Source: a virus
Lineage: Duplodnaviria > Heunggongvirae > Uroviricota > Caudoviricetes
Virus record (IMG/VR): IMGVR_UViG_3300025682_000004
Length of the DNA stretch: 64,000 nt
Reading direction: 5' to 3' (one strand)
The notes under the pieces were generated by a model that was not told the origin of the DNA, did not search any database, and saw only the letters and a list, made by a program, of their open reading frames with translations. Position numbers and translations under genes: made by a program. How positions within the stretch are numbered: the first letter of the stretch is position 1; each line of letters begins with the position of its first letter. Shown here piece by piece: positions 1,491 through 52,835 of the stretch.

Positions 1491-1721
1491 AATTAAACCA
1501 ATTTAAAATTATAATATATTTTACGAATGTATTTAAAAAATGTTACAAAAAAAGCAAAAAAAAAGAAGTAACTTGGTTATATTTTTTTGTAAATATATTT
1601 GCACATATTACTGAAAATACATCCAGTTCTTCTTCTATAAAAAAGGGAATAGTTTAGAAATATTTTCTTTTTTTGCAAGTTTAAACTACTTGTGCCTAAA
1701 CCAATTCGGCTAATTATCCAT

Positions 1722-1797
1722 TATGGTAGGATAATATCGGATTCGAACCGATATTTACTGTAAACATTTCTAGTTTTCCCAAACTGCGGGGAGTGTA
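1722..1797 (-). other. tRNA-like fragment or possible tRNA pseudogene (T-arm and 3' acceptor-like region only)
   Basis: ggattcgaacc on the plus strand is the reverse complement of a canonical T-loop (GGTTCGAATCC), flanked by a 5-bp stem. I could not find a matching 5' acceptor strand or anticodon arm. An adjacent hairpin attatcc/ggataat lies at 1713-1735. Confidence 0.25.
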
Positions 1798-1860
1798 GGA
1801 CTCGAACCTACAAATCATTGTATCCAAAACAATTGCATTTTCCTAACTGTAAATACTATT
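1787..1860 (-). tRNA. tRNA-like (anticodon arm consistent with UGG/Pro) with no canonical 5' half found; possibly truncated
   Basis: Minus-strand read has T arm gtagg-ttcgagt-cctac, a 5-nt variable loop, and anticodon arm attgt-tttggat-acaat (loop positions 3-5 are UGG). The 3' acceptor actcccc has its only complement (ggggagt) far away at 1914-1920. Confidence 0.3.
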
Positions 1861-1944
1861 AGTTCTTATATCAAATAAGTAATTGTATAATATTTTTTGT
1901 ATTAATTTTGCTAACTCCCCATTTATATAAAGAACGTTTTTTTG

Positions 1945-2030
1945 TAGCGGTGATGGGAATCGAACCCATTTAAACCCAATAGGGACTCCGTGCTTATGAG
2001 GCAGGCGAGATACCATTTCTCCACACCGCA
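1945..2030 (-). tRNA. tRNA gene, class II-like (long variable arm), apparent anticodon CAU
   Basis: Folded by hand: 6-bp acceptor gcggtg/caccgc with a 1:72 mismatch, D arm gaga-aatggta-tctc, anticodon arm cctgc-ctcataa-gcacg, about 19-nt variable region, T arm atggg-ttcgatt-cccat. The combination of CAU with a long extra arm is unusual, so the assignment is uncertain. Confidence 0.45.
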
Positions 2031-2063
2031 ATTTCAAAAAACAGAAAATTTGTTTGTTATTTT

Positions 2064-2136
2064 TTTACAATGTTGGAATCGAACCAACAATATTTCATAT
2101 TGTGAATGAACACTCTATCCATTGAGTTAATTGTAC
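2064..2136 (-). tRNA. tRNA gene, 73 nt with canonical numbering; loop gives anticodon ACA with C at position 33
   Basis: Hand fold gives acceptor tacaat/attgta, U8, D arm actc-aatggata-gagt, anticodon arm ttcat-tcacaat-atgaa, 5-nt variable loop, T arm gttgg-ttcgatt-ccaac. The odd anticodon loop suggests a non-standard tRNA or pseudogene. Confidence 0.5.
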
Positions 2137-2300
2137 TGTATTAACAACCAGTTTCTGTTTACATATCTTAAAAGAACATATCTTCAATAATCACTGCAAA
2201 GATAAATAAAAAAAATTAAAATGCAAATTTTTAGAAAAATATTATTTGTAGATATAAATACGATAATTTTTATAAAATGTTACAAAATTTAATAAAATTT

Positions 2301-4037
2301 TCATTCTTTTTTTATAACATCTTGATTTTTACGTAATTTTTCTAATAATGATTCTATTTCATCATCATTATTATCAAAATAAATTTTATTATCTACCTTT
2401 AAATTATTAGAATTCGATTCTAAATTTAAGTTATTTTCTATTTCTTTTTCATCCAAATTATTTACATCATCTTTATTTTCATTCGTTTCTTCCCTGTTTT
2501 TTAACAATAAATCATTAATTCTATCAGATTCTTCTTTTTCTTTTAGATTATTTGTAGTGCAAATTGCTTCATGTATTTTCATTGTTGATGATTTTTCTTC
2601 TAACATTTTACTAGCCTTTTCATCAAAAGTTTCTTTATCTTTTTCATTATAATGTTTTAAATTTTTATATGTTTTTGAATATTTATATCTACTATCTTCA
2701 ATTACAATTTGCATTGTGTCGTTATTAAAAATACAATCTTCAAATCTTTGACCATCTTGTGCAAATCTTGCTTTAATAATAAAAATATTTGCTAAATGCG
2801 CTTCTTTTTGTTCATCAGTTTTAGCGACACTCATAAAAAAATGTGATTTTTGAATTCTTTTTATATTACCACCTGATTGATGTGGTTCTATAAATTCTGC
2901 ACCAAAACCAGAACGATTACTTTGAATAGCAGACCAAGCAGGAATATCTAAATCACCAGCAAGTGATTCAAATCCCTTTACAATTATTAATTCTGCATCA
3001 TTTCTATCGTATGCTTTTTTGTGTGGTTCTAAACAATCAAGATAATCAAGAACCAATAAATCAAATTTAAAACCATATTTTTTTTCATAACCAATCATCC
3101 AATTTCGAATATCTAATATTGTTGTATTATCTTGACTAAATCTTTTAATAACTAACTTGCCCTTACCTTTTAATTGTTTTACTTTTTCATATACAACATT
3201 ACTAACTCTTTCGTTTTCATCTTCATCATCCAATTTACTCAATGCTGATTTAGCCCATATTGTATAATGTTTACGTTTTATTTGGTCTTTAGTATCTTCA
3301 AATATTATTTGTGCTACGTTTTTTTCATTTTCATATGCAGTGTTTGCAATAACAGTTAATAAGGTTGTTTTTCCAACACCCGATGGAGATAAAATTAAAC
3401 CAATTTCACCCCTACCCAAACCACCACCACTTAATGCATCAATTACACCAACACCAGTTGGTATTGTTTTTCTAAATTCTTTTCTTAATGCAATATCAAT
3501 TCCTTCAATAACTTCTTCAGAATCATCTTCAGAATCAATCAACGATATTGTTCTTATTTTTTCTTCAATTAAACCAACAACATATTTATTTTTAATATCA
3601 CCCGTTTTTACATTTTCATGAATATAATCTGATAATTTACGATATTCTTGTTGTTTAATAAAAATGTTTGTACTTTTTCTAATAACATCCCCATCATACA
3701 ACATTTGCTTATTAATAATCCTTTCATTCCATAATTCAAGACGTTTAATTATAGAAAACAACGATTCTTCTTCTATTGAATTATTTGGTGTTTTATATGT
3801 ATTTATTGCTTGATAAATGCTTTTATTCTGAAGATTAGGAACTTTTTCAAATTCTTTATAAAATTCTAAAATTATTATAAACAATCTTTTTAAAATTGGG
3901 TCATCAAAATATTCAATTTCTAAATTAAGAATTGTTTTTTCTGCAAATTCTGGTTCAACCAATAATTGCCACATTAATTTTTGTTGAAATTCATATCCCA
4001 AATATGCTGTAAATGTATTTTCTACAACACCATCCAT
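2301..4037 (-). CDS. DnaB-family replicative helicase (T4 gp41-like)
   Basis: RecA-like core: Walker A SPSGVGKTT, Walker B LLVLDYLD, and SAIQSNRSG resembling the DnaB H4 motif (QxNR). The N-terminal domain is divergent. Confidence 0.6.
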   Translation of the reverse strand: MDGVVENTFTAYLGYEFQQKLMWQLLVEPEFAEKTILNLEIEYFDDPILKRLFIIILEFYKEFEKVPNLQNKSIYQAINTYKTPNNSIEEESLFSIIKRLELWNERIINKQMLYDGDVIRKSTNIFIKQQEYRKLSDYIHENVKTGDIKNKYVVGLIEEKIRTISLIDSEDDSEEVIEGIDIALRKEFRKTIPTGVGVIDALSGGGLGRGEIGLILSPSGVGKTTLLTVIANTAYENEKNVAQIIFEDTKDQIKRKHYTIWAKSALSKLDDEDENERVSNVVYEKVKQLKGKGKLVIKRFSQDNTTILDIRNWMIGYEKKYGFKFDLLVLDYLDCLEPHKKAYDRNDAELIIVKGFESLAGDLDIPAWSAIQSNRSGFGAEFIEPHQSGGNIKRIQKSHFFMSVAKTDEQKEAHLANIFIIKARFAQDGQRFEDCIFNNDTMQIVIEDSRYKYSKTYKNLKHYNEKDKETFDEKASKMLEEKSSTMKIHEAICTTNNLKEKEESDRINDLLLKNREETNENKDDVNNLDEKEIENNLNLESNSNNLKVDNKIYFDNNDDEIESLLEKLRKNQDVIKKE

Positions 4038-4056
4038 TTTTTATATAAAATTATTG

Positions 4057-4596
4057 TTAATAAGAATATTGCATATTTATAATATCACACATTTTCATTT
4101 TTTCGAAAATCTGATTTGTAATATCAACAACACATTCAACAATATCAACAGACCATCGAACATCAGGATTAAATCTATCAACATAAAATAATCTTTCTAC
4201 AATTGGATTGTCATTAACATATAACCCAATTTTACATTCAACACCTTTTATGATTTTATCTTCAATATGTAAAATGATTGGTTTTGGTTGATATTTTAAT
4301 TCTTCTCTTTGTTTTTTAGGAAAAGAATTAATTATATGATTATTATAATTTAAAAAATCATAATGTGTTAAATTTTCTGAATTAATACTATCCTTACCTA
4401 CATAATATATATGACTATATTGTTGTTTGGATAATAGTTTTTGTAATCTTGTTATTATTTTTGGTAAAATATCTCTAATATCCACTGAATATCTAACATA
4501 CGGACTAAAAACATTTCCATCAAAAATTTTTTCACATAAAATTATATCACCCTGTGATAAAGAAAATTTAAAAATATTAACATCTTTTTCTTCCAT
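4057..4596 (-). CDS. hypothetical protein
   Basis: 179-aa ORF. Confidence 0.35.
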   Translation of the reverse strand: MEEKDVNIFKFSLSQGDIILCEKIFDGNVFSPYVRYSVDIRDILPKIITRLQKLLSKQQYSHIYYVGKDSINSENLTHYDFLNYNNHIINSFPKKQREELKYQPKPIILHIEDKIIKGVECKIGLYVNDNPIVERLFYVDRFNPDVRWSVDIVECVVDITNQIFEKMKMCDIINMQYSY

Positions 4597-4664
4597 TTTC
4601 GTATAATTTAAAAAGTTTTATTGTATAAAAATATATTATATTTTAATAATAAACAAAAAAAATA

Positions 4665-5708
4665 TTATTTTTTATAATATTCAGTTAATAATTTTTTTTC
4701 ATTCATAATTACAGTATAAAACGGTTCAACGTAATTAGGAAAAGTGCTACCATAAACACTTAAAAAATCATCTTCAATCATCATATTATACAAATTTTTA
4801 CTCCCCCTATTTTCTGGAGATAATGGTACTTCTAATTGTAATAATTCTTCCTTTGCTTTTTCATTAAGTATTGGATTTTTTAAATTAACTAATTTATAAT
4901 TTGTTTTTAATCTATTCACATTGTTCAATAAATTATCCAATGCCTTTATTGGTTTTTTATTTTCTTTTAATCTATTTTCATTAAATTCTTTTGCTTTAAT
5001 ACAAATTTCACGAACAGTCAATTTTTTAAATTTTAATTCTGGAAAATATTTCAATAAACTTTTTTCACCCAATCCATCAATACCTTTTATATTATCTGAA
5101 GCATCGCCACAAATTATTTTATAAACTAAAGCATTTGTATAATGATGACTAAAGTGCATAATATAATTAATTTTATTTATTGGTTGTTCTTTATTTGGAA
5201 ATAAAATTAAAATATTTAAATCTAATAATTGAAGAAAATCTTTGTCATTTGAATATAATAAAATTTCTTCTTTATCATGATATTCAATACAATATTTTGC
5301 AATTAAATCATCACCTTCTATTTCGTCAACTTCTATTTGTCTTAAAAATAATTCTTCTGCATATGCTTGTATTCTTTTTTTCTGTTTTAATATTGATTCT
5401 TCTTTTTCTTTTTCTTTTTTTATTTCAACATCACTCATTTCAATTTTACGATACCATTCTTTGTTTTTTCTATTCGATTTGTAATTACTATCAATTCTAT
5501 GTCTATATATTCCACTATTTTCACCATCCCAAACTAAAACAACTTTATTAATTTTATGTGTTTTTATTAATTTACGAACAGTTGTTAAAAATTGATATAA
5601 TCCACCAATATGTCCAAATTTCACGGTGTAAGTATCTCTTGCACCGTGAAATGAACGTTGTAATAAGTATGATGAATCAACCAATAATGTCCTAATCTTC
5701 ATCTTCAA
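4665..5708 (-). CDS. 5'-3' exonuclease / flap endonuclease (T4 RNase H / T5 D15-like)
   Basis: N-terminal PIN-like region LLVDSSYLLQRSFHG, DKDFLQLL, and the H3TH motif ICGDASDNIKGIDGLGEKS characteristic of FEN and Pol I 5'-nuclease families. Confidence 0.8.
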   Translation of the reverse strand: MKMKIRTLLVDSSYLLQRSFHGARDTYTVKFGHIGGLYQFLTTVRKLIKTHKINKVVLVWDGENSGIYRHRIDSNYKSNRKNKEWYRKIEMSDVEIKKEKEKEESILKQKKRIQAYAEELFLRQIEVDEIEGDDLIAKYCIEYHDKEEILLYSNDKDFLQLLDLNILILFPNKEQPINKINYIMHFSHHYTNALVYKIICGDASDNIKGIDGLGEKSLLKYFPELKFKKLTVREICIKAKEFNENRLKENKKPIKALDNLLNNVNRLKTNYKLVNLKNPILNEKAKEELLQLEVPLSPENRGSKNLYNMMIEDDFLSVYGSTFPNYVEPFYTVIMNEKKLLTEYYKK

Positions 5709-6834
5709 AATCCATATGTTCTACAATATCATCTTCAAATGATATTTTTCCTTCCCCATCAATGTTCTTTGTTGAAAGAACTAAATCATTTTCATTAATA
5801 GAATCATCACCAAAAAGATTTCTAAAATAAAGAATATGTTTTTTCTTGAAATCAGGAATATCATCAGGATGTACAAAACCCAATGGTGTTGAAACAATTC
5901 TACCTTGCATTGATATACCACCCAACGGACCGTCAATATGGTTTTTTGCAACACCAATTTTTGTATCAATACCATATGAAACAACACGTTTTTTACTCTC
6001 AGCAACTGCTGCTTTAGTTCCATGTGTAATAATTCCACCAAAATGATATATTAACCTAGAACCTAAATACCAAGTTTCACCACCTTTATGTTTTACCACA
6101 CCTTTATTCATATTATCAATCCAAATTTTTTGAACTGCTGCTACAGTATTTGTATATTTTCTATTACCCTTTCTACTACTTGGTATTATATTATTTAACA
6201 AATACATAAAAGATTTTTCATATGCACCAGCATTCCACATATTGTTTTGTGTATCGTCTTTTTCTGCTGCATCAATTGTTTTTATACAATTTAATGTACC
6301 AATAGAATCAATTGCAAATAATAAATCGTATGGTAATTCACCAGATTCTTGCATGTCTAAAAAATAATAAAAACATTTTGCTAAATCTTCAATTGATGCT
6401 TCATTTCTATTTTTATTTTGTTTTTTTCCAAATTCAGTCAAAAGATAATCATTATCCACTCTTATATAATTATCAAAATCAAAACCCAACTCACTTAATC
6501 GATAATTACCTTTACCCATATTATTTTCTGTATCTATTAGAATAGGTAAAATTCCCATTTTTTGAGATTCAACTAATGTTTCACAAATTGCTGTTGACTT
6601 TCCTGTATTTGTATGTCCACGAAATAAATTAACATAACCCTTTGCTACACCAGGAAGACCTGTTGCTTTTTTAAAACCTGAAGATAAAGTAATCCATTCT
6701 AATGGTTTATTGGGTACATCTTCAACATTTGCCTTTTTCTTAAAGTTCTCTAAAGAAAATGTTTTTTTGGGTGTTGGTTTTCTTTTATTTCCTTGAATAC
6801 CATCACTATCTAAATTTAAAGAATCGTTTTTCAT
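5692..6834 (-). CDS. RecA/UvsX-like recombination ATPase
   Basis: Walker A GHTNTGKST, and a RecA-style Walker B FAIDSIGTL (compare UvsX VFIDSIGNM). GGETWYLGSRL resembles the RecA L2-region pattern. Confidence 0.5.
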   Translation of the reverse strand: MKNDSLNLDSDGIQGNKRKPTPKKTFSLENFKKKANVEDVPNKPLEWITLSSGFKKATGLPGVAKGYVNLFRGHTNTGKSTAICETLVESQKMGILPILIDTENNMGKGNYRLSELGFDFDNYIRVDNDYLLTEFGKKQNKNRNEASIEDLAKCFYYFLDMQESGELPYDLLFAIDSIGTLNCIKTIDAAEKDDTQNNMWNAGAYEKSFMYLLNNIIPSSRKGNRKYTNTVAAVQKIWIDNMNKGVVKHKGGETWYLGSRLIYHFGGIITHGTKAAVAESKKRVVSYGIDTKIGVAKNHIDGPLGGISMQGRIVSTPLGFVHPDDIPDFKKKHILYFRNLFGDDSINENDLVLSTKNIDGEGKISFEDDIVEHMDFEDED

Positions 6835-6914
6835 TATATATAAATTTTATTAAAATTAAATAAAAAAAAATCCAATTGGTATTTTAATCAACACCAATTG
6901 GATTTAAAAATAAA

Positions 6915-8171
6915 TTAAAATGGTAAATCATCATAATCATCAGAATCCATATCATAATCAGAAAAATCACTTATTTCTGAATCATCATTTGAATCATTCT
7001 CATTCAAATCATCTTCATTTTCCATAACATCACTACCTAAATCAGTAGCATCATCATCATATGTTCCAACATCAGATTCGGTTATATTGCTTATTGTTAC
7101 ACGTGGATATTCAACATCCTCTAAATCAGAAGCATATTCAAAATTATCATCTTCAGTTGAATCTAAATTCATTTTACGTGTATTTGCTAATTCTTCCAAA
7201 TCAGGTCTATTTGGAAATACCCAACGTTTATTTTTTGCATCAGTATCATCCCAATATGGATTAGTACCACTTACAACCATTTCTAAAAATTCAAATGGTG
7301 TTATATTTGGTGCTTTCTTTGGTAAGAAAACATCTCTCCAACTAATATCATCATCAAGCCATTGTTTCATCACAAGAGGGTCTTGTGATAATTTAGATTT
7401 TCCTCTTGCTGTAATTGCTGATATTGCCTTATAAACACGACCATTAAATTCACTATCAGTCATTATAATATTTAAATCAGTTCCATTATATGGGTCTGAA
7501 AAATCTGCTTGATTCATCATCATATAATCTTCTAAAATTGGAAGTAGTTTATCAAGAGTTCCTTGATTTTTATAATTGTGTTTAAATCTCCAAAATTTAA
7601 CACCATCCTTTTCAGCACCTTTATCAATACCACGAATTATATAAAATTTCTTTGCTTCCCATTTAATGGCTTCTTTATATATTTCATCGTTTTTTGCCTT
7701 TATTCTTTTTTGAACATCATTCATTTCCTCTTTCTTAACACCAATTAATGATGGGTCTTGTTGTGATAATAGTTTTTTATACTTTGCACATAGAGGACAT
7801 GGTGCTGGAACTAAAATTGGATTATTGTTTTGGTCTAACATAGGTTTACCATCACTACCAATTTTTGGAACTCTAGGGTCATTGTGTGCAGGACAATAAA
7901 GAATTGTACCATGCTTTTTTACACCACCCGCAATGTTTGTAGTAACAACATGAAAATAGGCTTCTTCAATATGTTTTCTACCTTGTTTTGGTGGTAATAT
8001 TCTAAACGTTTCTTTCGTATTTCTAGGCACAAAATACTTAGCAAGAATATTTTCACGGGATGATGTTTTTTTGTTTGCTTGTGATTGTTTTTTTTGATAG
8101 TCAGCAAACATTTTTTTCAGTTGTGATAAATCACCACCTTGTGGTGATTTTCCTTCAGTTACATTACTCAT
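6915..8171 (-). CDS. ssDNA-binding protein, gp32-like Zn-finger SSB with acidic C-terminal tail
   Basis: CPAH...CPLC matches the gp32 His/Cys Zn site spacing. The last about 60 residues are D/E/S-rich and end in DDLPF, resembling the bacterial SSB tip DDDIPF. Confidence 0.6.
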   Translation of the reverse strand: MSNVTEGKSPQGGDLSQLKKMFADYQKKQSQANKKTSSRENILAKYFVPRNTKETFRILPPKQGRKHIEEAYFHVVTTNIAGGVKKHGTILYCPAHNDPRVPKIGSDGKPMLDQNNNPILVPAPCPLCAKYKKLLSQQDPSLIGVKKEEMNDVQKRIKAKNDEIYKEAIKWEAKKFYIIRGIDKGAEKDGVKFWRFKHNYKNQGTLDKLLPILEDYMMMNQADFSDPYNGTDLNIIMTDSEFNGRVYKAISAITARGKSKLSQDPLVMKQWLDDDISWRDVFLPKKAPNITPFEFLEMVVSGTNPYWDDTDAKNKRWVFPNRPDLEELANTRKMNLDSTEDDNFEYASDLEDVEYPRVTISNITESDVGTYDDDATDLGSDVMENEDDLNENDSNDDSEISDFSDYDMDSDDYDDLPF

Positions 8172-16929: not shown

Positions 16930-18120
16930 CTACCCATTTGCTAAAGACAAATGGGCTTCGGACTTCGCAGATAGTTGAGTATTACTACTTCTTACACCAT
17001 CTCCATCCGTGTTATCGAGCGTCCCACCCGATATTATTTTCAATCCTTCTTTCAGAATGACCTTTGCTGCATTTAAATCACGGTCTAATTTATGTCCATT
17101 TTTGCAAGTCCATTCACGAACCGAAAGATTTAAATCTTGATTTATCCATCCACACACATTACAAGTTTTGCTTGAGGGGTAAAAGCGATTGATTTTAACA
17201 ACTTGTTTATCGTTCCAATCTGCTTTGTACTCCAAGAATCTCACAAATGTACCCCAACTTGCATCTGCAATGTGTTTTGATAATTTTCTATTGCTCATCA
17301 TTCCCTTTACATTAAGGTCTTCCAAAGCAATTATGTCATAATCAGAAACAAGTTGATGCGATACCTTATGCAATACATCTTGTCTTGTGTTGGATATTTT
17401 CTCGTGTATTTTGGCAACTTTTCGTTTTTGTCTTTCAAACGAATTGCTACCTTTTTGCTTACGAGAAAGATGTTTTTGTGCTTTCGCTAAATCTCTTTCA
17501 TATTTCTTGGTATATCTGTTATTCTTGAATTTGATGCCGTCAGAAGTAATGGCAAAATCTTTCAAACCTAAATCCACACCACATACAGCACCAGTTTTTT
17601 CTTTTGGTTGATATTGTTCTTCGGTTAAAATTGAAACATAGTATCTTCCAGTCGGTGTTTTAGTAAAGGTCATTTTGCCAACATCGCCCCTTATTTCACG
17701 GTGAACAATACATTTAATCCCTTCTTTGAATTTAGGTACGTGAATTTTACTACCTTCTAATTTTGTGTGTTGTGGTACGGTGAAACTATTCCTTCTTTTC
17801 TTAGACTTAAATCTTGGAAACTTGGCATTGCCACGAAAGAAGTTAAGGAATGCAGTATCCAAAGACCTTAAAGCAAATTGCAGGGTTTGGCTGTTTACTT
17901 CTTTAAGCCAAGCAGTTTCCTCTTGCTTTTTTAATTCAGTCAAAGTTTTTGCTTGAACATAATAGTTGTCAGACTTCTTGTTTGCCTGATACTGTTCTTT
18001 ACGCTCATTCAGAAAGTAATTGTACACGAACCTAACACACCCGAAGTGTTTATCCAGCAACACTTTTTGGTCTTGTGTCGGTCTTAATTCAAAGCGATAT
18101 GTCCTATATATTGTTTTCAC
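16930..18120 (-). CDS. tnpB: TnpB (OrfB; RuvC-like, RNA-guided nuclease family)
   Basis: RuvC-I GVDLGLKDFA, RuvC-II IALEDLNVKGM, Zn finger CNVCG...CKNGH, RuvC-III DRDLNAAKVI. The C-terminus overlaps the right-end hairpin, where omega-RNA is normally derived. Confidence 0.85.
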   Translation of the reverse strand: MKTIYRTYRFELRPTQDQKVLLDKHFGCVRFVYNYFLNERKEQYQANKKSDNYYVQAKTLTELKKQEETAWLKEVNSQTLQFALRSLDTAFLNFFRGNAKFPRFKSKKRRNSFTVPQHTKLEGSKIHVPKFKEGIKCIVHREIRGDVGKMTFTKTPTGRYYVSILTEEQYQPKEKTGAVCGVDLGLKDFAITSDGIKFKNNRYTKKYERDLAKAQKHLSRKQKGSNSFERQKRKVAKIHEKISNTRQDVLHKVSHQLVSDYDIIALEDLNVKGMMSNRKLSKHIADASWGTFVRFLEYKADWNDKQVVKINRFYPSSKTCNVCGWINQDLNLSVREWTCKNGHKLDRDLNAAKVILKEGLKIISGGTLDNTDGDGVRSSNTQLSAKSEAHLSLANG

Positions 18121-42774: not shown

Positions 42775-44457
42775 ATGGGATTTTTAATGGAAAGTGGCGA
42801 AGTTGGTAACATTGGTATTAAACAACTTCGTGAACAAAGAGAAATTACGACAAACCGTTGGGAAAAAATTGGATTACTTGAAGGATTAGATGGCAATATT
42901 AAAGAAAATTGCGCTCAATTATTCGAAAACCAATTATCTCATATGCTTAAAGAATCTTCTGATTCTACATCAAGCGGTCAATTTGAAACAGTTGCATTCC
43001 CTGTTATTCGTAGGGTGTTTGCAAAATTATTAGCAAACGATATTGTTTCAGTACAAGCACTTAACTTACCTTTAGGTAGATTATATTTTATCAATCCAAA
43101 GGCTAGTACACGTGTACAAGATAGTACACATACAACAACACTTGGTAATATTCATACATCACCTGATGGTGCATATGGAAATGCTGCTGAAAAAACATCA
43201 ACAAGTTCAACTAATTTTGAAACTCGTTCATTATACGATGCATTCTATGCAACTGAATATAATGATGAAGGTACTTCATTATTCGATTTATCAAAAGGTA
43301 GTATTGATAGTAAATCAATTACTGGTTTAACTGCTAAAGGTTATACAGCAGGAGATAAATTCGTTACTCTTGAAATCACAGGATTTACTACTGATAATGC
43401 AGGTAAATTGGTAGGTCCTGCTGGCGCACCAATGGATACCGAATCATTCCTTGCTGGATTAAAAGTAACAGCAAATAAAACTTTTACAGCACCAAGTGGT
43501 TATACAAGTGAAAATATTGCAAGTGGAAATCCAATACCATTTAACGTAAAAGTTCAAAAATATGGACAGGGTATTGTGGATAAAAATGGTAAAATTGTTG
43601 TTTTACTTGATGTTCAATATCCTGGTAAAGATGGTTATCATGCATTAACCATTCCAACTGGAACTATTTATACTGCAACATATAGAACATATAGCGACCT
43701 TGAACAAGATTCAAGAATGGCAGAAGTAACATTCGTTCTTGATTATGTTACTGTAAGTGTTGAAACTCGTAAAATGAGAGCAATGTGGACACCTGAATTA
43801 GCACAAGACGTTTCTGCATTCCATAATATTGATGCTGAAGCAGAATTAACTGCATTGTTATCAGAACAAATGGCTGCTGAAATTGACCGTGAAATATTAC
43901 GTGACTTAAGACGTGGTGCTGCATGGACTGCTCGTTGGGATTATAACGGATTAAGAAAAGGAACTAATACTTATTATGGTGTACAAAAAGACTGGAATCA
44001 AACGTTAATTACTAAAATTAACCAAATTTCAGCACAAATTAATAAGTCAACATTACGTGGTGGTGCATCATGGATAGTTGTATCTCCTGAAGTTTCTGCT
44101 GTTTTTGATGACTTAGAATATTTCCACGTTTCAAATGCTTCACCTGAACAAGATAAGTATAATATGGGTATTGAAAAAATTGGTACAATAGGTGGACGTT
44201 ATGTTGTTTACCGTGACCCATATTCAGCACCTAATACTGTTCTTATTGGACATAAAGGAACTAGCATATTGGAAACCGGCTATATTTATGCACCATATAT
44301 ACCTATGCAATTAACACCTGTAATGTATAATCCATTTGATTTTACACCAATTCGTGGTATTTTAACACGTTATGCTAAGAAAATGGTTCTAAACCGTTAC
44401 TATGGTAAAATCTTATGTGATGGATTAACAACATTTGGTGTTGGTGATTTATCCTAG
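42775..44457 (+). CDS. major capsid protein (T4 gp23-like)
   Basis: ETVAFPVIRRVFAKLLANDIVSVQALNLPLGRLYF ~ gp23 GPAVMGMVRRAIPNLIAFDICGVQPMNSPTGQVFAL; RKMRAMWTPELAQDVSAFHNIDAEAEL ~ KSRQLKAAYSIELAQDLRAVHGMDADAEL. Confidence 0.8.
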   Translation: MGFLMESGEVGNIGIKQLREQREITTNRWEKIGLLEGLDGNIKENCAQLFENQLSHMLKESSDSTSSGQFETVAFPVIRRVFAKLLANDIVSVQALNLPLGRLYFINPKASTRVQDSTHTTTLGNIHTSPDGAYGNAAEKTSTSSTNFETRSLYDAFYATEYNDEGTSLFDLSKGSIDSKSITGLTAKGYTAGDKFVTLEITGFTTDNAGKLVGPAGAPMDTESFLAGLKVTANKTFTAPSGYTSENIASGNPIPFNVKVQKYGQGIVDKNGKIVVLLDVQYPGKDGYHALTIPTGTIYTATYRTYSDLEQDSRMAEVTFVLDYVTVSVETRKMRAMWTPELAQDVSAFHNIDAEAELTALLSEQMAAEIDREILRDLRRGAAWTARWDYNGLRKGTNTYYGVQKDWNQTLITKINQISAQINKSTLRGGASWIVVSPEVSAVFDDLEYFHVSNASPEQDKYNMGIEKIGTIGGRYVVYRDPYSAPNTVLIGHKGTSILETGYIYAPYIPMQLTPVMYNPFDFTPIRGILTRYAKKMVLNRYYGKILCDGLTTFGVGDLS

Positions 44458-44545: not shown

Positions 44546-46003
44546 ATGGAAGCACACCAACATAAAATTAGAATAAAAAAATCAAAAGAAGAAATATTAG
44601 ATTTTAATTATAAAAACATTTCTTTAGATAATACAGAAATTAAATTAATTGATAAAAACACTGCAAGTAAAATTATAATAGAATATGAATGGTTAAAAAC
44701 AATGCCATATATTGTTAAATATTGTTTTGGTATATATTTTAATACAGAAAATGGTCAAAAACTAGGTGGTGTTTTAGTTTTTAGTAATGATTATACAGAA
44801 AATACTGGTGTTTGGGATAAATATGGATTTACAAATAAAATTTTATTATTAAGCAGGGGTGTTTGTTTATGGTGGACACCAAAAAATACAGCATCTTTTT
44901 TTATTTCTAGGGTTTGTAAATGGTTAAAAAATAATACAAAATATAGAATAATAACAGCAACTGTTGACCCAGCAGCAGGTGAAATCGGAACAATTTATCA
45001 ATCATTAAATTGGTTATATGTTGGTGTTATGTCTGGTAATTATTCCAATAATAAAGAAACAAAAAGATTTTCAGTATTAATTGATGGTAAATTAAGATAT
45101 AGTAGATGGGTTAGAAATAAATTGGGTACGATGAAAAAAAATGTTATTTTAAAACACTATCCCAATGCAATATTTTTACCACAATATAGAAAACATAGAT
45201 ATTTTTATTTTATAGACACACCAAGAAATAATAAAAAACATAAAACATCTATAAATCATTTAATATTACCATATCCTAAAAGAAATGATGAAATTATTGG
45301 CGTTATTTATAAAATAAAAAACAAAATAAACAACAAATTATATATTGGACAAACAATTCGTTCAATAAATGAAAAAATATTAGAATATAAAAATGGTTTG
45401 GGTAATGATTATATTAATAATGCATTCAATAAGTATGGTTGGGATAATTTTGAATTTACAATAATTGATACGGCAAAAACAATTCAAGAACTAAACAATA
45501 AAGAAATTAAATATATTAGTGATTATAAATCAAACCAAAAAGAATTTGGTTATAATATTGAAGGTGGTGGTAAAAATATAATACCAACAAAAGAAACTTT
45601 AGATAAAATGTCTATTTCTCATTTAGGTATTAAACAATCTAAAGAATGGATTAATAAAAGAATTTCAAAAGCAGGTAGTAATGATGCAAAAAAATACGGT
45701 AGAAAAAAAACAAAGCAAGATAAATTAATTTTAAGTAAAAATTCTTCTAAATATTGGTTAGGTAAAAACCATACAGAAGAAACTAAACAAAAAATTAGTA
45801 AAACAAAAAAACAAATTGGATTGTCTGAAAAACAAAAAGAAATAATTTGCAAAAAGGTATTTAAAGTTAATTTAAAAACTAATGAAATTATTGAATTTGA
45901 ATCAACAAAAAAGGCGAGTGTTTTTGAAAATGTTAATCAATCCACAATATCAAGATGGTGTAAAAATGAAAAAAGAGTAAATGGTTATTTATGGAAAAAT
46001 TAA
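44546..46003 (+). CDS. GIY-YIG homing-endonuclease-like protein with unusual N-terminal extra domain and C-terminal NUMOD-type DNA-binding repeats
   Basis: GIY-YIG core at about residues 250-330: GVIYKIKNKINNKLYIGQT...R...E...N. C-terminal repeats SISHLGIKQSKEWINK and WLGKNHTEETKQKISK resemble NUMOD3. The first about 240 aa form an unrecognised domain. Confidence 0.55.
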   Translation: MEAHQHKIRIKKSKEEILDFNYKNISLDNTEIKLIDKNTASKIIIEYEWLKTMPYIVKYCFGIYFNTENGQKLGGVLVFSNDYTENTGVWDKYGFTNKILLLSRGVCLWWTPKNTASFFISRVCKWLKNNTKYRIITATVDPAAGEIGTIYQSLNWLYVGVMSGNYSNNKETKRFSVLIDGKLRYSRWVRNKLGTMKKNVILKHYPNAIFLPQYRKHRYFYFIDTPRNNKKHKTSINHLILPYPKRNDEIIGVIYKIKNKINNKLYIGQTIRSINEKILEYKNGLGNDYINNAFNKYGWDNFEFTIIDTAKTIQELNNKEIKYISDYKSNQKEFGYNIEGGGKNIIPTKETLDKMSISHLGIKQSKEWINKRISKAGSNDAKKYGRKKTKQDKLILSKNSSKYWLGKNHTEETKQKISKTKKQIGLSEKQKEIICKKVFKVNLKTNEIIEFESTKKASVFENVNQSTISRWCKNEKRVNGYLWKN

Positions 46004-46578: not shown

Positions 46579-49500
46579 TTAAGAGATATCTGTCCAATTT
46601 CTATCAAAGATTAATTCATTTTTTGCTCTTGTATATGCAACATATTCTAAATTTTTTTCTTGTAAAAATTCCCAATTTTTTGTTGTTTTCATTGGTAATA
46701 AATCTGGTCTTATTATAAAGACCCTATTTGCTTCAAGACCCTTTATTTTATGTATTGTACTTAAGCAAATTCCTTGAATTTCATCACTAAAAATTAAACC
46801 AATTTTATTTTTTAAATCAACAATACTATTTGATAATTTTGCTAAAAAAAGTAATGTTGTTACTTTATCTTCTAATGTAACATAACCACTATGTTCATTT
46901 GGGTTTAAAATACCTTCCTTTTTTAATTCTTTTCTATATTTAATTAATTCTCTATCCCAAAAAAGAATTAAATTGTCAATAGATTTAATATCACCAATTA
47001 ATTCAATTAACTGAACACCAATATCAGAACCTTTCACAATTGCTTTTTTTTCTTGTTCTAAAAATTCAAAAAATAATTTAATTAATGGTATTGTTGTTCT
47101 ACATAAAACAAAATCACCACTTTCTGCTTCTTTTAAAACATTACCATCCCTTACAATACCATCAGGTGCATTGGGTAGTGCTTTTATATCAGGTACAATT
47201 TCTTGTGCTTTTTTTATTACATTTTTTGAACATCTGAATGACGTTGATAATGGTAGTGTTTTAGTATTTGGGAATTTACTAAACCATTCAAACGCTTTTT
47301 CATCTGCTGCATTAAATCCATATATACAATTATGTGTTAATATATTATCAGCAACATATGTTTCGTATTTATCAATTTCTAAAGAATAAACTAAACCAGA
47401 ATATTTTTCATATTTTAATTCATATATTTTTTGAATGTTGTGCAAATTTGCATTTAAACTGCAAATTTGCATTAAATCTGGAATAATATTAATTGCATAT
47501 ATTTCTAAAAAATTTTGATTATAATCCATATTCCAATTAGAATTCCATATCGGGTAGTTTGAATTTTTATTAAAATCATTAAATATTTTATCTTTATTTG
47601 CTAAATAATAATTAGCATCTTTATATGCATAATACAAAGAATAGTACGATTTTAAAATCCAAATTTTATTAACATCACTTTTATTCTTAAAAATTTTAAA
47701 AAAATCAATCTCATTTCTTATTGTGAATATACGTATGTGTTGAGTTTCATCCATCAATTCAAACAAACACAATACAAATTGTAATTGTTTTGTTTTTTTT
47801 ATTTTAACCAAACATTTATGTTCTGGTGTATATTTAGATTCACATCCTCTTGAAATTATTTTTATTAAATTTCCATTATAATACCTACAACCAATATTGT
47901 TAATTTTACTTTTAATAAAGGAATTACTTTTTCTATCGTAAGAAATAATTAAATCACCAACATTTAAATTTTCAATATCCTTTTCTGTATTATCATTCAT
48001 TAATATTTTTGTTCCTTTAGGTTGACATTGATAATAATCACCAACAGATATTAATCTACCTATATATTTACCAGTAGTTTTATCTTTTTTTATTAATTTT
48101 TCTACAATTTTTATTTGACAACGATTTAAATCTTGAACTTCATCAATAAAAATATAATCTTGAGGAAACATCCAAATACTACTATCTATTGCTGGTAAAT
48201 ATATCATATCAATAAAATCATAATTTTTTCTATCAATTGTTGATTCTTCTAATATTTTTAATATTCTTTTAATATCTTTATTTTCTTTAATTGGTATATT
48301 ATATTTTTCAGCAATATTTGGAATAAATTCTGAATTTGTTGTTAATGTTAATCTACATAAATTAACCATTTTTTTTATATTATTTAAATATAAAGAAATA
48401 TCATCGTTATCATCAAATTCATCGTTTAATTTCCAATTTTTTGATTTTGATTGTATTATTTTATCAATTTTAAATTCATCGAATTGTATTTTATCACCAT
48501 ATTTTCTTTTAATTGCAGACGTACCTAAACCATAAGTTGTATAACATCTAACATATTCGGGTAATTTTGTTTTTAATTCTTCTTGTATGTGTTTATTGAA
48601 CGCTAAAAACATAATAGATTTATCTTTAGGTAATAATTTTACTGCATCAACTATGGTTGAAGTATTGTGTGTGATTGTAAAATCACCCAATAAAAATCTA
48701 CCATTACCATTTAAAGTAAATCCAAAATATAAACCTTGTGATATAATATTTTCTTTTATTTTAAAAGAAAATAAATTATTGTAATTTGTTTTTTGTTTTC
48801 TTTTATATACTAAAGGTAATATGCTAGTATTTCCATTAATGTCAATTTTCCAAAAAATGTTATTTCGAAAAGAAAATATCTTTTTCTCTTTATATATAAA
48901 ACCTAAACTTTCACATAAAAATTTCAAATTAACTATTTTCCTTTTTGAAATTATTGTTAGTTTGGATGTCCTGTTTTTTTTATTATAATAAACATCAAAA
49001 ATACCCGCCAAGATTTTTTTTCTATTTTCAATAGAATTTATTAGATATTTGTCTGGTATTGATAAATGAATATTCTTTTTGTTTTTATCAATATTAAAAA
49101 TAATACACTTTTGAAAATCATCGGAATAAAAACCCTTTTCATATTTTTTATTTAAACAAACACTTGTTTTATTTAAAACAAAAAAAGAATTATCTTTTAA
49201 CTCCAACAATTTTTCTATTATTTTTCTTGTTAACCTAAAATCGACAAATAAAAATTGTTTTATATTATTTTTTAAATTATATCCTAACCATAATCCTAAT
49301 AAATATGGATTTATTTCTGTTTTATTTTCTTGAAATTCAACAATGGATTTTTTTAATTTAATATTTTTTAAATAACCATTCCATTTTTTTGAATATTTGA
49401 GTTCATTTAGTGGTGTATCTAACAAAATTTTAGAAATTTCATTGTAATGTGTAATTACATGAACATCATTACAAACCCAAGAATATCCTATTTCATTTTT

Positions 49501-49749
49501 TATTTTATATAGTTTACCATATCCAATATTTTTATTCAATACTTTACGAGGCGATGAATCATCACCCATTAAAAAATCACCAATTTTTATATCTTGAACC
49601 CTTTTTATTGTTCCATCATACATCAATACTGGTGTATCATATCCAAGACATTTACCTGTACCAGCATATGCTTTTATTAAAATATTTTCAGGTCTTTTTT
49701 TTGTAAATAAAAATATTCTTTCTTGTTCTTTTGTTGGTTTATTAATCAT
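46579..49749 (-). CDS. SF1 DNA helicase (Dda/UvrD-like) precursor containing two inteins
   Basis: Exteins join to give Walker A AYAGTGK|TSTIV and motif III VGDYYQ|CIYGFNAA (compare UvrD VGDDDQSIYGWRGA). The C-terminus has LSTIHKIKGLEAN and YVAYTRAKN (motifs V/VI). The predicted mature size is about 494 aa. Confidence 0.7.
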   Translation of the reverse strand: MINKPTKEQERIFLFTKKRPENILIKAYAGTGKCLGYDTPVLMYDGTIKRVQDIKIGDFLMGDDSSPRKVLNKNIGYGKLYKIKNEIGYSWVCNDVHVITHYNEISKILLDTPLNELKYSKKWNGYLKNIKLKKSIVEFQENKTEINPYLLGLWLGYNLKNNIKQFLFVDFRLTRKIIEKLLELKDNSFFVLNKTSVCLNKKYEKGFYSDDFQKCIIFNIDKNKKNIHLSIPDKYLINSIENRKKILAGIFDVYYNKKNRTSKLTIISKRKIVNLKFLCESLGFIYKEKKIFSFRNNIFWKIDINGNTSILPLVYKRKQKTNYNNLFSFKIKENIISQGLYFGFTLNGNGRFLLGDFTITHNTSTIVDAVKLLPKDKSIMFLAFNKHIQEELKTKLPEYVRCYTTYGLGTSAIKRKYGDKIQFDEFKIDKIIQSKSKNWKLNDEFDDNDDISLYLNNIKKMVNLCRLTLTTNSEFIPNIAEKYNIPIKENKDIKRILKILEESTIDRKNYDFIDMIYLPAIDSSIWMFPQDYIFIDEVQDLNRCQIKIVEKLIKKDKTTGKYIGRLISVGDYYQCQPKGTKILMNDNTEKDIENLNVGDLIISYDRKSNSFIKSKINNIGCRYYNGNLIKIISRGCESKYTPEHKCLVKIKKTKQLQFVLCLFELMDETQHIRIFTIRNEIDFFKIFKNKSDVNKIWILKSYYSLYYAYKDANYYLANKDKIFNDFNKNSNYPIWNSNWNMDYNQNFLEIYAINIIPDLMQICSLNANLHNIQKIYELKYEKYSGLVYSLEIDKYETYVADNILTHNCIYGFNAADEKAFEWFSKFPNTKTLPLSTSFRCSKNVIKKAQEIVPDIKALPNAPDGIVRDGNVLKEAESGDFVLCRTTIPLIKLFFEFLEQEKKAIVKGSDIGVQLIELIGDIKSIDNLILFWDRELIKYRKELKKEGILNPNEHSGYVTLEDKVTTLLFLAKLSNSIVDLKNKIGLIFSDEIQGICLSTIHKIKGLEANRVFIIRPDLLPMKTTKNWEFLQEKNLEYVAYTRAKNELIFDRNWTDIS
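47329..48027 (-). mobile_element. intein 2 (233 aa) inserted in helicase motif III
   Basis: Starts with Cys after VGDYYQ and ends ...ILTHN followed by Cys. Contains a Cys/His cluster (CRYY...GCESKYTPEHKC). Its endonuclease type is unclear. Confidence 0.55.
48664..49650 (-). mobile_element. intein 1 (329 aa) with LAGLIDADG-type homing endonuclease motifs, inserted in Walker A
   Basis: Starts with Cys after GTGK and ends ...ITHN followed by Thr. Internal blocks LLGLWLGYNL and ILAGIFDVYY resemble the two LAGLIDADG motifs. Confidence 0.65.
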
Positions 49750-51679: not shown

Positions 51680-52243
51680 ATGAAAAAAAGAAAACAATTT
51701 ATTGACCTAGAATCAAATCGAATGGGTTTATTTATGAACAATAATTCATTTGATTTGGATATTATGTATGGTAGAAATTATTTACAAACAGATAATGCTC
51801 AAGAAATTATACTATATAAAATAAATGTTATTGAAAGTAAAACACATGACCTTTATGGTCAAGCAAAAGCAAAAGATAAAAAATATTTACCACCAGTAAG
51901 ATTGTCCGTTATGGTTAATGTTGAACAAAGTAAGCAAGAATATTATGGTAATAATCAAAGCGGTATTGTTCGTGATGATACGGGTAGTTTGATTTTTGGT
52001 GTTTATTTAAAAGAATTGGAAGATAAAAAAATTGATATTGATAGGGGCGATATTGTTATGTATAACATGAGTGGTGAAAAAAATAGATTTTATGAAGTTG
52101 AAAATGCTAATAATGTTACCGATGAAACAACTAAAACAATTGGTGGATTTAAACCATATTGGAAACGTGTAACGGCAGTTCCAGTGCGTAGTGATGTTGT
52201 CGCATTATTCGAAGGTGGTGAACATGGAGAATTTAGAGTTTAA
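51680..52243 (+). CDS. hypothetical protein
   Basis: 187-aa ORF with a TATTTATATAAAAG motif 13-26 nt upstream. Confidence 0.3.
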   Translation: MKKRKQFIDLESNRMGLFMNNNSFDLDIMYGRNYLQTDNAQEIILYKINVIESKTHDLYGQAKAKDKKYLPPVRLSVMVNVEQSKQEYYGNNQSGIVRDDTGSLIFGVYLKELEDKKIDIDRGDIVMYNMSGEKNRFYEVENANNVTDETTKTIGGFKPYWKRVTAVPVRSDVVALFEGGEHGEFRV

Positions 52244-52835
52244 TTTTATTTTTTATAAATCTTCTCCAAATAAATGAATAAAATGGTTGCCAATCGTTAA
52301 ACTCAACAATACAAATCTCACCATTTTTTAATGTTTTATTTTCTTTATCATCACAATATTTATATTTTTCAACATCATTCCAATATATTCTATAAAAATC
52401 ATCATCCGTTTCAAAAGAAAGCGAATGATTTAATTTTTCAATATGATTAAAATTTTTTTGAATAAAATTATCTCTACAATCTATTGCAAATAAACTATTA
52501 AATGTTGGTGATGATTTAATAAATAACGAAAAATTATTACCGTAATCTTTTCTTGCTATTAAATTTAGTGCCTTCCAATATGTTCTAGGTAATTCATAAT
52601 CCCATTCTTTTTGTGTTGTGGCATATTCACATATCAATTTCTTTTTTCTATCACCACTAATTTGTATTAATATAATATCGTTTTTATTGTATTGATTTTC
52701 ACATTGAATTTCAAAAAAAATACCACATTTAACAAAAAAAAGTGGCATGTTTTTATTCAAATAATGACACATTATAAATTCATTTTGATGATTAATTTTA
52801 TAATATTCATCAACCGCATTATAATTTTTCCCCAT
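52233..52835 (-). CDS. hypothetical protein
   Basis: 200-aa ORF. Confidence 0.3.
   Translation of the reverse strand: MGKNYNAVDEYYKINHQNEFIMCHYLNKNMPLFFVKCGIFFEIQCENQYNKNDIILIQISGDRKKKLICEYATTQKEWDYELPRTYWKALNLIARKDYGNNFSLFIKSSPTFNSLFAIDCRDNFIQKNFNHIEKLNHSLSFETDDDFYRIYWNDVEKYKYCDDKENKTLKNGEICIVEFNDWQPFYSFIWRRFIKNKIKL

Follow-up and report, generated by a model that had tools for sequence, protein, structure and literature searches.

Results

The window analysed here, a 64-kb stretch of viral DNA, carries on its minus strand a complete precursor CDS (46579..49749; 1056 aa plus stop) for a UvrD-like SF1 helicase that contains two inteins. A sequence-only reading had described a 1056-aa ORF at 46579-49749, which the minus-strand translation reproduces, and the ORF start is supported by the orthologue alignment. 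The precursor matches the Pfam families UvrD-helicase, UvrD_C, Hom_end_hint and Intein_splicing. Its N-extein (aa 1-33; 49651..49749, minus strand) ends in the Walker A sequence AYAGTGK and, as far as GK, can be aligned with orthologues that have no intein. The middle extein (aa 363-574; 48028..48663, minus strand) holds the Walker A Thr, motifs Ia and II (FIDEVQD) and the first half of motif III (VGDYYQ), and is colinear with intein-free orthologues. The C-extein (aa 808-1056; 46582..47328, minus strand), likewise colinear with orthologues, supplies the rest of motif III (CIYGFNAAD) along with motifs IV, V and VI and the UvrD_C domain, with Pfam matches to UvrD_C and UvrD_C_2.

Once aa 34-362 and aa 575-807 are removed in silico, a UvrD-like SF1 helicase of 494 aa remains, and its computed mass of 57.4 kDa agrees with the roughly 57 kDa anticipated for the spliced product. 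The boundaries proposed by the sequence-only reading (34-362 splitting AYAGTGK/TSTIV, 575-807 splitting VGDYYQ/CIYGF) proved exact to the residue, and the hallmarks on which it relied (N-terminal Cys, C-terminal HN and a following nucleophile) are present in both inteins. Upon in silico splicing the UvrD-helicase Pfam score rises from 36 to 77 bits, with coverage of profile positions 13-268 of 271. The spliced extein reaches 77 bits for PF00580 (cutoff 23) and 43 bits for PF13361 (cutoff 25.6), contains SF1 motifs I, Ia, II, III, IV, V and VI in order, and is colinear with phage helicases annotated as UvrD/PcrA. We class it as an SF1A UvrD/Rep/PcrA-like helicase, for which ATP-dependent DNA unwinding is predicted. 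In DNA of 21% GC, a stop-free frame would arise by chance with a probability of ~4e-17 over intein 1 and ~3e-12 over intein 2; 19-47 stops occur in the remaining sense frames. The insertions at Walker A and motif III are confirmed as inteins in an SF1 (UvrD-like) helicase.

Intein 1 (aa 34-362, 329 aa, CLGYD...FTITHN|T; 48664..49650, minus strand) lies between Walker A Lys33 and Thr363. Its Hint domain scores well above the Pfam cutoff (PF05203, Hom_end_hint, 66.8 bits vs. 32.1; E=3.6e-18), its sequence matches the Prp8 and PI-SceI inteins in the PDB, and it keeps 59 of 65 family-conserved columns. Cys34, which directly follows Lys33, is a Cys in 28/28 members of the family. The block B region (aa 88-101, GYSWVCNDVHVITH; 49447..49488, minus strand), which corresponds in the alignment to that of the Prp8 intein, retains Asn94 (27/28 in the family) and His97 (28/28) at family-conserved positions, the Asn in place of the textbook Thr being the norm of this family. 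Every family-conserved column is also kept in blocks F and G (aa 339-362, GLYFGFTLNGNGRFLLGDFTITHN; 48664..48735, minus strand), which end in His361-Asn362 before Thr363 at +1, as in the 28 relatives (HN in 28/28). These features point to a class 1 intein of the Hom_end_hint type with a Hint domain that is predicted to self-splice.

Between the splicing blocks lies the remnant of a nested LAGLIDADG endonuclease (approximately aa 140-330; 48760..49332, minus strand), which we judged by a motif table over 29 family members and a conserved-column test. Two LAGLIDADG-like blocks had been noted here, and aa 149-158 (YLLGLWLGYN; 49276..49305, minus strand) and aa 246-255 (ILAGIFDVYY; 48985..49014, minus strand) do align, as two LAGLIDADG helices at homologous positions, with the true motifs LLGLWLGDG and LLAGIIDTDG of relatives. 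However, both have lost their acidic residue to Tyr: in the first, family LGDG is altered by Asp->Tyr157 and Gly->Asn158, and in the second, family LLAGIIDTDG by Asp->Tyr254 and Gly->Tyr255. At these two sites an acidic residue (Asp, in one member Glu) occurs in 20/28 and 19/28 relatives, respectively. Relatives carry PF05204 and PF14528 according to precomputed Pfam tags, whereas intein 1 of the window yields no Pfam match to LAGLIDADG_3 (PF14528) or Hom_end (PF05204) at E<=1. It also shows indels relative to 340-aa relatives and is only 44-47% identical to its relatives, which share 71-80% among themselves at similar extein divergence. The blocks are relics, and endonuclease activity has probably been lost.

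Intein 2 (aa 575-807, 233 aa, CQPKG...NILTHN|C; 47329..48027, minus strand) belongs to a 'CQPxGT...ILTHN' family specific to SF1 motif III. PF14890 (Intein_splicing) is matched above its cutoff of 35.8, albeit narrowly (40.3 bits in the precursor, 37.6 alone). Its AF2 model (pLDDT 92.9, pTM 0.89) returns 38 Foldseek matches in the PDB at E<=1e-3, all of them inteins, BIL or Hedgehog Hint domains, with a best TM of 0.81 normalised to the target; according to this model, intein 2 has the horseshoe-beta Hint fold. Cys575 and His806-Asn807|Cys808 are present, the terminal residues being invariant in the family (C 134/134, N 134/134). Block B (aa 638-648, SKYTPEHKCLV; 47806..47838, minus strand) keeps both T641 (T in 128/134) and H644 (H in 134/134). 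In blocks F and G (aa 785-807, GLVYSLEIDKYETYVADNILTHN; 47329..47397, minus strand), which end in His806-Asn807 before Cys808 at +1, none of the conserved residues V, Y, S, L, Y, A, D, I, T, H and N has been lost; Ser in place of the textbook Asp in block F is the norm of the family. Across the Hint part only four conserved columns differ, all by mild substitutions (N/G, I/V, I/V, N/G). The +1 residue varies within the family (76 Ser vs. 68 Cys). Intein 2 is accordingly read as a class 1 intein with a Hint domain and is likewise predicted to self-splice. The Cys/His cluster that the sequence-only reading noted in intein 2 is mainly the splicing block B (T641xxH644), followed by C646, which is conserved in the family. 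We considered and rejected this cluster as a metal-binding endonuclease motif: C621 and C636 are not conserved.

The family of intein 2 comprises at least 1747 cluster representatives in an exhaustive HMMER search and sits almost only at SF1 motif III (VGDxxQ|[S/C]IYGF; 119 of 134 full-length members). Within it, intein 2 is a shortened derivative of a ~300-aa form with a conserved nested domain and no plain mini-intein; among 135 members it belongs to the shortest length bin, and it shows five deletions relative to the intein of representative P0035, with ~70 aa lost overall. Its residual nested domain (aa 651-763; 47461..47799, minus strand) measures ~113 aa vs. ~150-170 in intact relatives. 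Most residues that are invariant in the middle domain of the family are gone from it. Six near-invariant residues have been lost (Y->C661, M->F663, G->F675, R->F687, E->S691 and E->A712) and the S..IPQ..F block is deleted. Because AF2 still folds this domain confidently, we use 'decayed' for its conserved residues and not for its fold.

The intact nested domain of the family, with invariant residues Y, R, G, R, W, E, P and N, matched no family by sequence in Pfam, PHROGs, NCBIfam or the PDB; searches of these resources with 32 members gave no GIY-YIG match, and no correspondence was obtained between the invariant residues and the GIY-YIG active site. Aligned by hhalign with the window's own GIY-YIG domain, it gave a probability of 0.13%. 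We considered a GIY-YIG nuclease and did not adopt this assignment.

Presence and absence of the inteins were compared across the 120 best orthologues of the helicase, which are about 70-79% identical to it. Both insertions are absent at exactly these boundaries in 113 of them (476-498 aa in length), whereas six carry the site 1 intein alone and one the site 2 intein alone. At site 1 the uninterrupted sequence of empty alleles is AGK|T(T/S)T (113/120), and at site 2 it is VGDFFQ|GIYGF; occupied site 2 alleles have C or S at +1. The comparison with intein-free homologues that the sequence-only reading had proposed thus yielded no collinear sequence across the inserted regions, and the Hint blocks, whose absence would have spoken against inteins, are present. 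Sixty-nine blocks of the collection contain the identical protein, its contigs reaching 240 kb, and this repeated record argues for a viable lineage. On the four contigs examined the helicase gene is nucleotide-identical, with no within-allele variation. The exact protein is already in NCBI as 'Hint domain-containing homing endonuclease [archaeon]', a label that is misleading on both product and taxon.

IS605 and GIY-YIG elements had also been reported elsewhere in the window, and both were recovered: a TnpB/IS605 gene at 16930-18120 and a GIY-YIG endonuclease gene at 44546-46003, which adjoins the helicase gene. With TnpB, a GIY-YIG endonuclease and two inteins in 64 kb, the description of a genome heavily colonised by selfish elements is reasonable.

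Discussion

The P-loop K|T position of intein 1 is a 'classic' intein site (PMC5050341). Intein 1 shares this GxxxxGK|T site with P-loop LAGLIDADG inteins of the Hom_end_hint type, relatives of the Sce VMA1/PI-SceI and Prp8 inteins (TerL1-a, DnaB-b, MCM-a and RFC-a sites), as well as the Cys1...His-Asn boundaries, PF05203 and similarity to the PI-SceI and Prp8 inteins. Of the 31 relatives found, 27 occupy the Walker A GK|T/S position in thymidine kinase, DnaB-like, RFC-like, ResIII/DEAD and dNK proteins, a distribution that echoes the P-loop-to-P-loop transfer described for inteins (PMC10710043). It differs from these systems in its host, a phage UvrD-like helicase, and in the loss of both acidic residues and of recognisable LAGLIDADG/Hom_end profiles. 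Among UvrD-type hosts, 16 bacterial UvrD inteins have been counted (PMC4760082) and a PcrA-like helicase intein has been mentioned (PMC10710043). The window has the host family and the location in conserved ATPase motifs in common with them; intein 2 belongs to a family placed after the motif III Gln (GDxxQ|[S/C]IY), of which it is the shortest form (233 aa vs. about 260-320), with its nested domain decayed. Our literature search found no published description of this motif III site or of the family's nested domain.

Helicases with two inteins have been described in mycobacterial and cyanobacterial DnaB, at the P-loop site b and site a (PMC6195587, PMC4760082). The window shares with these the occurrence of two independent inteins in one ATPase core, one of them in the P-loop, but DnaB is a hexameric SF4 helicase, whereas the protein studied here is of the SF1 monomeric type, phage-encoded, and has its second site in motif III. 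The combination recurs, as both intein types co-occur in at least five and up to ten of the best 150 intein 2 family representatives, among them P0155, whose extein is 61% identical to that of the window.

We consider it likely that the locus holds two fixed, immobile and still-splicing inteins with decayed nested domains in the UvrD-like helicase of an uncultured T4-like phage. The gene would be translated as a 124-kDa precursor with two unrelated class 1 inteins. Splicing would begin with an N-S acyl shift at Cys1 of each intein, followed by trans-(thio)esterification to Thr363 or Cys808 at +1, cyclisation of the terminal Asn with help from the penultimate His, and an acyl shift to a peptide bond. 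Excision would rebuild AYAGTGK-TSTIV and VGDYYQ-CIYGF (junction peptide, e.g., LISVGDYYQCIYGFNAADEK) and release the active 57-kDa helicase. Both inteins probably entered the conserved ATPase motifs through endonuclease-driven homing, their nested domains decaying later in the phage lineage of the window. They would now be immobile passengers at a late stage of the homing cycle, immobile from the decay of both nested domains and kept in frame because any disruption would destroy the helicase. Late-stage inteins elsewhere combine conserved splicing residues with decayed endonuclease residues in the same way; the window does not differ in principle but has two at the same stage in one gene.

For intein 2, loss of homing presupposes that its nested domain, a putative nuclease, was once an endonuclease. 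GIY-YIG domains have been stated to be 'not known to be present in inteins' (PMC2677866), and the in-frame types listed in a 2025 survey do not include them (10.1101/2025.01.02.630785). The conserved, in-frame, ~150-aa domain could represent a homing endonuclease type new to inteins, perhaps a very divergent GIY-YIG-like one, a suggestion that we make tentatively and regard as rather doubtful. If it holds, intein 2 of the window would be the decayed relic of such a nested endonuclease.

Several other readings of the locus deserve consideration. The insertions could be lineage-specific accessory domains of the helicase fold, comparable to 1B/2B, and variable inserted domains do occur in SF1 helicases, which is the sole reason to entertain this. 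Hint profiles and a Hint fold, canonical C...HN|nucleophile boundaries, close orthologues that lack exactly these segments and the same intein types at the same motifs of unrelated proteins all contradict it, and with the orthologue alignment and the Hint fold match of intein 2 it is already refuted, leaving it practically no probability. One or both inteins might instead have ceased to splice, the phage tolerating a disabled helicase that is in effect a pseudogene. Decay of both nested domains signals that constraint has been relaxed over parts of the inserts, the divergence of intein 1 is unusual (44-47% identity), and a gene that is nucleotide-identical on four contigs offers no selection signal. 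Yet this decay is confined to the nested domains, while the family-conserved splicing residues are kept in both inteins and all seven helicase motifs are intact. Moreover, the 3.2-kb frame has stayed open in 21% GC DNA (for the two inteins by themselves, P is ~1e-12 to 1e-17) and the orthologue is conserved at 73-79% identity in well over 100 related contigs, so that we regard a non-splicing gene as very unlikely.

The inteins might also still be mobile, through their own nested domains or with the help of a free-standing endonuclease acting in trans. Phage group I introns offer a precedent for such collaborative homing, in which endonuclease-less elements rely on free-standing endonucleases. 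The precedent, the candidate GIY-YIG homing endonuclease ORF at 44546-46003, ~0.6 kb from the helicase gene, and the predicted fold of the residual nested domain of intein 2 all lend this some appeal. It is nonetheless quite improbable, as both LAGLIDADG metal-binding positions of intein 1 are Tyr, the nested domain of intein 2 lacks six near-invariant residues and bears a deletion, the inteins contain no out-of-frame or antisense ORF >72 aa, and there is no link between the GIY-YIG enzyme next door and the target sites in the helicase gene. Co-option as conditional switches, by which redox state or metals would govern splicing and hence helicase activation, is compatible with the main explanation. 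Unspliced helicase must be inactive because the inteins sit in ATP-binding motifs, intein 2 pairs Cys1 with a Cys at +1 and could form a redox-sensitive disulfide, the family is split between 76 Ser and 68 Cys at +1, and DnaB inteins, a two-intein helicase among the cases, are documented to splice conditionally (PMC6195587, PMC7360933). However, 113 of the 120 closest orthologues manage intein-free, so no conserved regulatory need is apparent, and neutral persistence after homing fits the pattern. We therefore view regulation as unlikely and retain two immobile, splicing inteins as the preferred reading.

The main value of this analysis lies in a correct annotation, that of a 57-kDa UvrD-like helicase plus two inteins. 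The case is a clear but ordinary example, as P-loop, UvrD-family and two-intein helicase inteins have already been described. Both inteins are compact and probably endonuclease-dead, with Thr and Cys at +1, respectively, and could be candidate protein-engineering tools if they splice well. The only wider question raised here concerns the role of the unclassified nested domain in the large family of motif III inteins. Related phages have alleles that are empty, that keep an intact endonuclease or that have decayed, down to a fully minimised site 1 intein of 153 aa in P0176. With empty, single-intein (with intact endonuclease motifs), double-intein and decayed copies, these related phage helicases give a neat illustration of the homing cycle in nature.

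Two inteins in a phage helicase precursor

The 1056-aa ORF on the minus strand of the window (46579–49749) encodes a UvrD-like SF1 helicase that is interrupted twice. Translating the gene and cutting it at the residues named in the sequence-only reading reproduced that description exactly. Intein 1 (CLGYDTPVLM...GDFTITHN, 329 aa, residues 34–362, window 48664–49650) lies between AYAGTGK and TSTIV of Walker A, and intein 2 (CQPKGTKILM...ADNILTHN, 233 aa, residues 575–807, window 47329–48027) between VGDYYQ and CIYGFNAAD of motif III. Removal of both in silico leaves a 494-aa helicase in which all seven SF1 motifs are present, and its computed mass of 57.4 kDa agrees with the spliced product of about 57 kDa proposed earlier. 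LISVGDYYQCIYGFNAADEK is the predicted tryptic peptide spanning the intein 2 splice junction. In DNA of 21% GC, the odds of a stop-free frame are ~4e-17 across intein 1 and ~3e-12 across intein 2.

The strongest evidence that the insertions are inteins comes from comparison with relatives. Megablast of the helicase gene against cultured phages gave no match. Helicases of cultured phages, including Chryseobacterium phage MA9V-3, Bacteroides phages DAC and SJC, and Pseudomonas phage proteins annotated as PcrA/UvrD, align to the spliced extein as a single colinear piece over 94–98% of its length. Among the 120 best orthologues in a large protein collection (70–79% identical), 113 are 476–498 aa long, six are 833–835 aa and tagged Hom_end_hint/Hom_end/LAGLIDADG_3, and one (P0035, with an intact intein at the motif III site only) is 798 aa and tagged Intein_splicing; occupancy is therefore polymorphic in the population. 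In the alignment the empty alleles read AGK-TTT and FFQ-GIYGF (hyphens mark insertion points), and both insertions start and end exactly where originally placed.

Domain searches agree with this. In Pfam, Hom_end_hint matches residues 34–87 (66.8 bits vs. a cutoff of 32.1), Intein_splicing covers residues 583–807 (40.3 vs. 35.8 bits), and UvrD-helicase and UvrD_C matches surround both inteins in the precursor; splicing in silico raises the UvrD-helicase score from 36 to 77 bits, with coverage of positions 13–268 of 271. A search of solved structures matched the N-terminus of intein 1 to the Prp8 and PI-SceI (VMA1) inteins. Because intein 2 passed its Pfam cutoff narrowly, we additionally modelled its structure on the family alignment (pLDDT 92.9, pTM 0.89). 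All 38 Foldseek matches of the model at E ≤ 1e-3 were Hint-fold proteins: BIL domains, PI-SceI domain I, the Prp8, CDC21, RecA, DnaB and gp41-1 inteins, and Hedgehog. Since the homologues hold no collinear sequence across these regions and the Hint blocks are found, the question of whether the insertions belong to the helicase fold is resolved in favour of inteins; the finding is real and its original interpretation essentially right.

Genomic context

In the assembly collection, 69 blocks contain the identical helicase protein, and the contigs involved reach 240 kb. The context is T4-like, with a Gp23-type capsid whose nearest cultured relatives are only ~30–33% identical, a gp21-type prohead protease, thymidylate synthase (ThyA) and a dUTPase. 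The exact protein is deposited at NCBI as HPC09580.1, [quoted passage not shown]; both product name and taxon are misleading for a helicase with two inteins in a phage-like context.

Other mobile elements occur in the window. An IS605 element had been remarked upon, and a 396-aa TnpB (IS605 OrfB) is indeed encoded at 16930–18120 on the minus strand, with HTH_OrfB_IS605, OrfB_IS605 and Cas12f1-like TNB domain matches at E-values down to 3e-27. A 485-aa ORF (44546–46003, plus strand) that immediately follows the Gp23-like major capsid gene (42775–44457) joins a Mom-like DNA-modification domain (residues 21–261; phrog_1384, PF25680) to a GIY-YIG homing-endonuclease module (residues ~245–484; phrog_314) whose catalytic part resembles I-TevI (PDB 1ln0, E = 0.012); the two may be genuinely fused, or a homing endonuclease may have invaded the end of a mom-like gene. 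The 578-aa DnaB-like, gp41-type helicase (2301–4037, minus strand; DnaB_C at residues 192–377) appears intein-free, as no Hint domain was detected in it. On a related 220-kb contig (L002), which carries a nucleotide-identical helicase gene, a ~5.6-kb block (positions 1601–7085) encoding an 851-aa N6/N4 methyltransferase and a 946-aa ResIII/SWI2_SNF2 helicase takes the place of the window's 200-aa ORF (52233–52835) beside thymidylate synthase. Between strains that are otherwise nearly identical, this block forms a variable island.

Intein 1 belongs to a P-loop family and has a decayed endonuclease

Relatives of intein 1 (P0121–P0151 in the collection), 27–42% identical over the full intein length, occur in many unrelated P-loop NTPases, including thymidine kinase, DnaB-like, AAA_24, RFC-like, ResIII/DEAD and deoxynucleoside kinase proteins. 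In 27 of 31 the insertion point is the Walker A GK-T/S junction, with conserved ends CLGxDTPVLM...GDFTVTHN; two proteins of the collection, P0156 and P0176, carry an intein of this type two residues upstream (AG-...-SGKT). The Walker A K-T site has been called the "classic P-loop intein insertion" (PMC5050341), and the hosts of this clade match the described spread of inteins from P-loop to P-loop between non-homologous proteins (PMC10710043).

Across 28 family members, 65 columns reach at least 80% conservation, and intein 1 keeps 59 of them, including Cys1, the block B Asn/His, blocks F and G, and the terminal His-Asn, and by this measure its splicing module is conserved. Of the six columns lost, four lie in the endonuclease region. 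Most relatives have LGDG and D(T/S)DG in their LAGLIDADG motifs; the window copy reads LGYN and DVYY and therefore has tyrosine at both acidic metal-binding positions. The role of these acidic residues is established for LAGLIDADG endonucleases. Pfam finds neither LAGLIDADG nor Hom_end in intein 1, while its relatives have them. Intein 1 is only 44–47% identical to the same-site inteins of orthologues, which are 71–80% identical among themselves at an extein divergence of 76–79%. From these observations together we infer that the homing endonuclease has very probably lost its activity.

Intein 2 is a reduced member of a large motif III family

A word-indexed protein search with intein 2 gave no matches and missed even P0035. 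With a profile built from intein 2 and the P0035 intein, exhaustive HMMER searching recovered 1747 cluster representatives at E ≤ 1e-3, of which 121 also reached E ≤ 1e-30. In 119 of 134 full-length members the intein follows the Gln of motif III of an SF1 helicase, with the pattern VGDxxQ-CQPxGTK...DGILTHN-[S/C]IYGFxGxD. Several members, among them P0178, P0184, P0190, P0192, P0193 and P0211, have the penultimate His replaced (TSN, TGN, TCN or TNN instead of THN), which suggests that assistance of Asn cyclisation may vary within the family. A literature search for UvrD inteins returned no paper, and no published account of the motif III site was found.

Typical members measure 260–320 aa, and the 233-aa window copy is the sole occupant of the shortest bin. 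Its Hint portions differ from the family consensus by only four mild substitutions (N/G, I/V, I/V and N/G) and retain C1-Q-P, G-T, T641xxH644, VYSL and Y..AD.I.THN. In the middle domain, residues shared by over 120 of the 134 members are replaced (Y to C661, M to F663, G to F675, R to F687, E to S691 and E to A712), and the S..IPQ..F block is missing. Compared with the 304-aa P0035 intein, the window copy shows five deletions. The Cys/His cluster that had been noted here consists of block B plus cysteines not conserved in the family, and we reject it as a zinc or HNH-type motif.

By alignment, intein 2 has left a scar in the extein codons that flank it (window 48028–48045 and 47314–47328). Of 93 matched empty alleles, 91 have Gly at +1, where the window has Cys and P0035 has Ser; at −3/−2, 83 of the 93 have FF, the window has YY and P0035 has FH. 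These differences could reflect co-conversion from a donor or adaptation for splicing. The +1 position is tolerant, as Ser and Cys (76 and 68 cases) are about equally common in occupied family members.

The double arrangement is not unusual. Among the 150 best representatives of the intein 2 family, at least 5 and perhaps as many as 10 have a second intein, of the intein 1 type, in or beside the P-loop. One of these double-intein proteins, P0155, shares 61% extein identity with the window helicase and keeps the conserved motifs in both nested domains; in P0176 the site-1 intein is minimised to 153 aa. Helicases with two inteins (DnaB) and inteins in the UvrD family have been described before (PMC6195587, PMC4760082), and the gene belongs to well-known kinds.

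Proposed mechanism and the nested domain

The precursor would be translated with both ATPase motifs interrupted, and each intein would excise itself via the canonical class 1 pathway, restoring Walker A and motif III and presumably a functional helicase. Both inteins probably arrived by homing and have lost their mobility modules since, and would persist because only precise deletion is tolerable. With the splicing residues kept in both inteins, the data do not favour a splicing-dead pseudogene; synonymous variation gives no information on selection, as the gene is nucleotide-identical on all four contigs compared, each of which carries the identical protein. Nor do they favour residual or trans-assisted mobility, given the losses in both nested domains, or conditional splicing. 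The boundaries, the family assignments, the residues kept or lost and the occupancy polymorphism are direct observations; splicing, helicase function and endonuclease inactivity are inferred. Self-excision of two immobile inteins is the reading best supported.

For the middle domain of 32 intact members of the intein 2 family, searches of Pfam, PHROGs, NCBIfam and PDB sequences gave no match. The P0035 middle domain was modelled with confidence by AF2 (pLDDT 91.8); the model has a beta-beta-alpha-beta-alpha core and found no match in Foldseek. Some actinophage inteins have out-of-frame or antisense endonuclease ORFs; within the inteins of the window and of the intact P0035 locus, none longer than 72 aa was found. 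The motif pattern offers a weak lead towards a GIY-YIG/T5orf172-like domain, a reading that the sequence databases, Foldseek and hhalign (probability 0.13% vs. the window's own GIY-YIG domain) leave unsupported; in-frame GIY-YIG is absent from published lists of intein endonuclease types (PMC2677866; 10.1101/2025.01.02.630785). As an unclassified nested domain of a large motif III intein family, it may merit separate follow-up.
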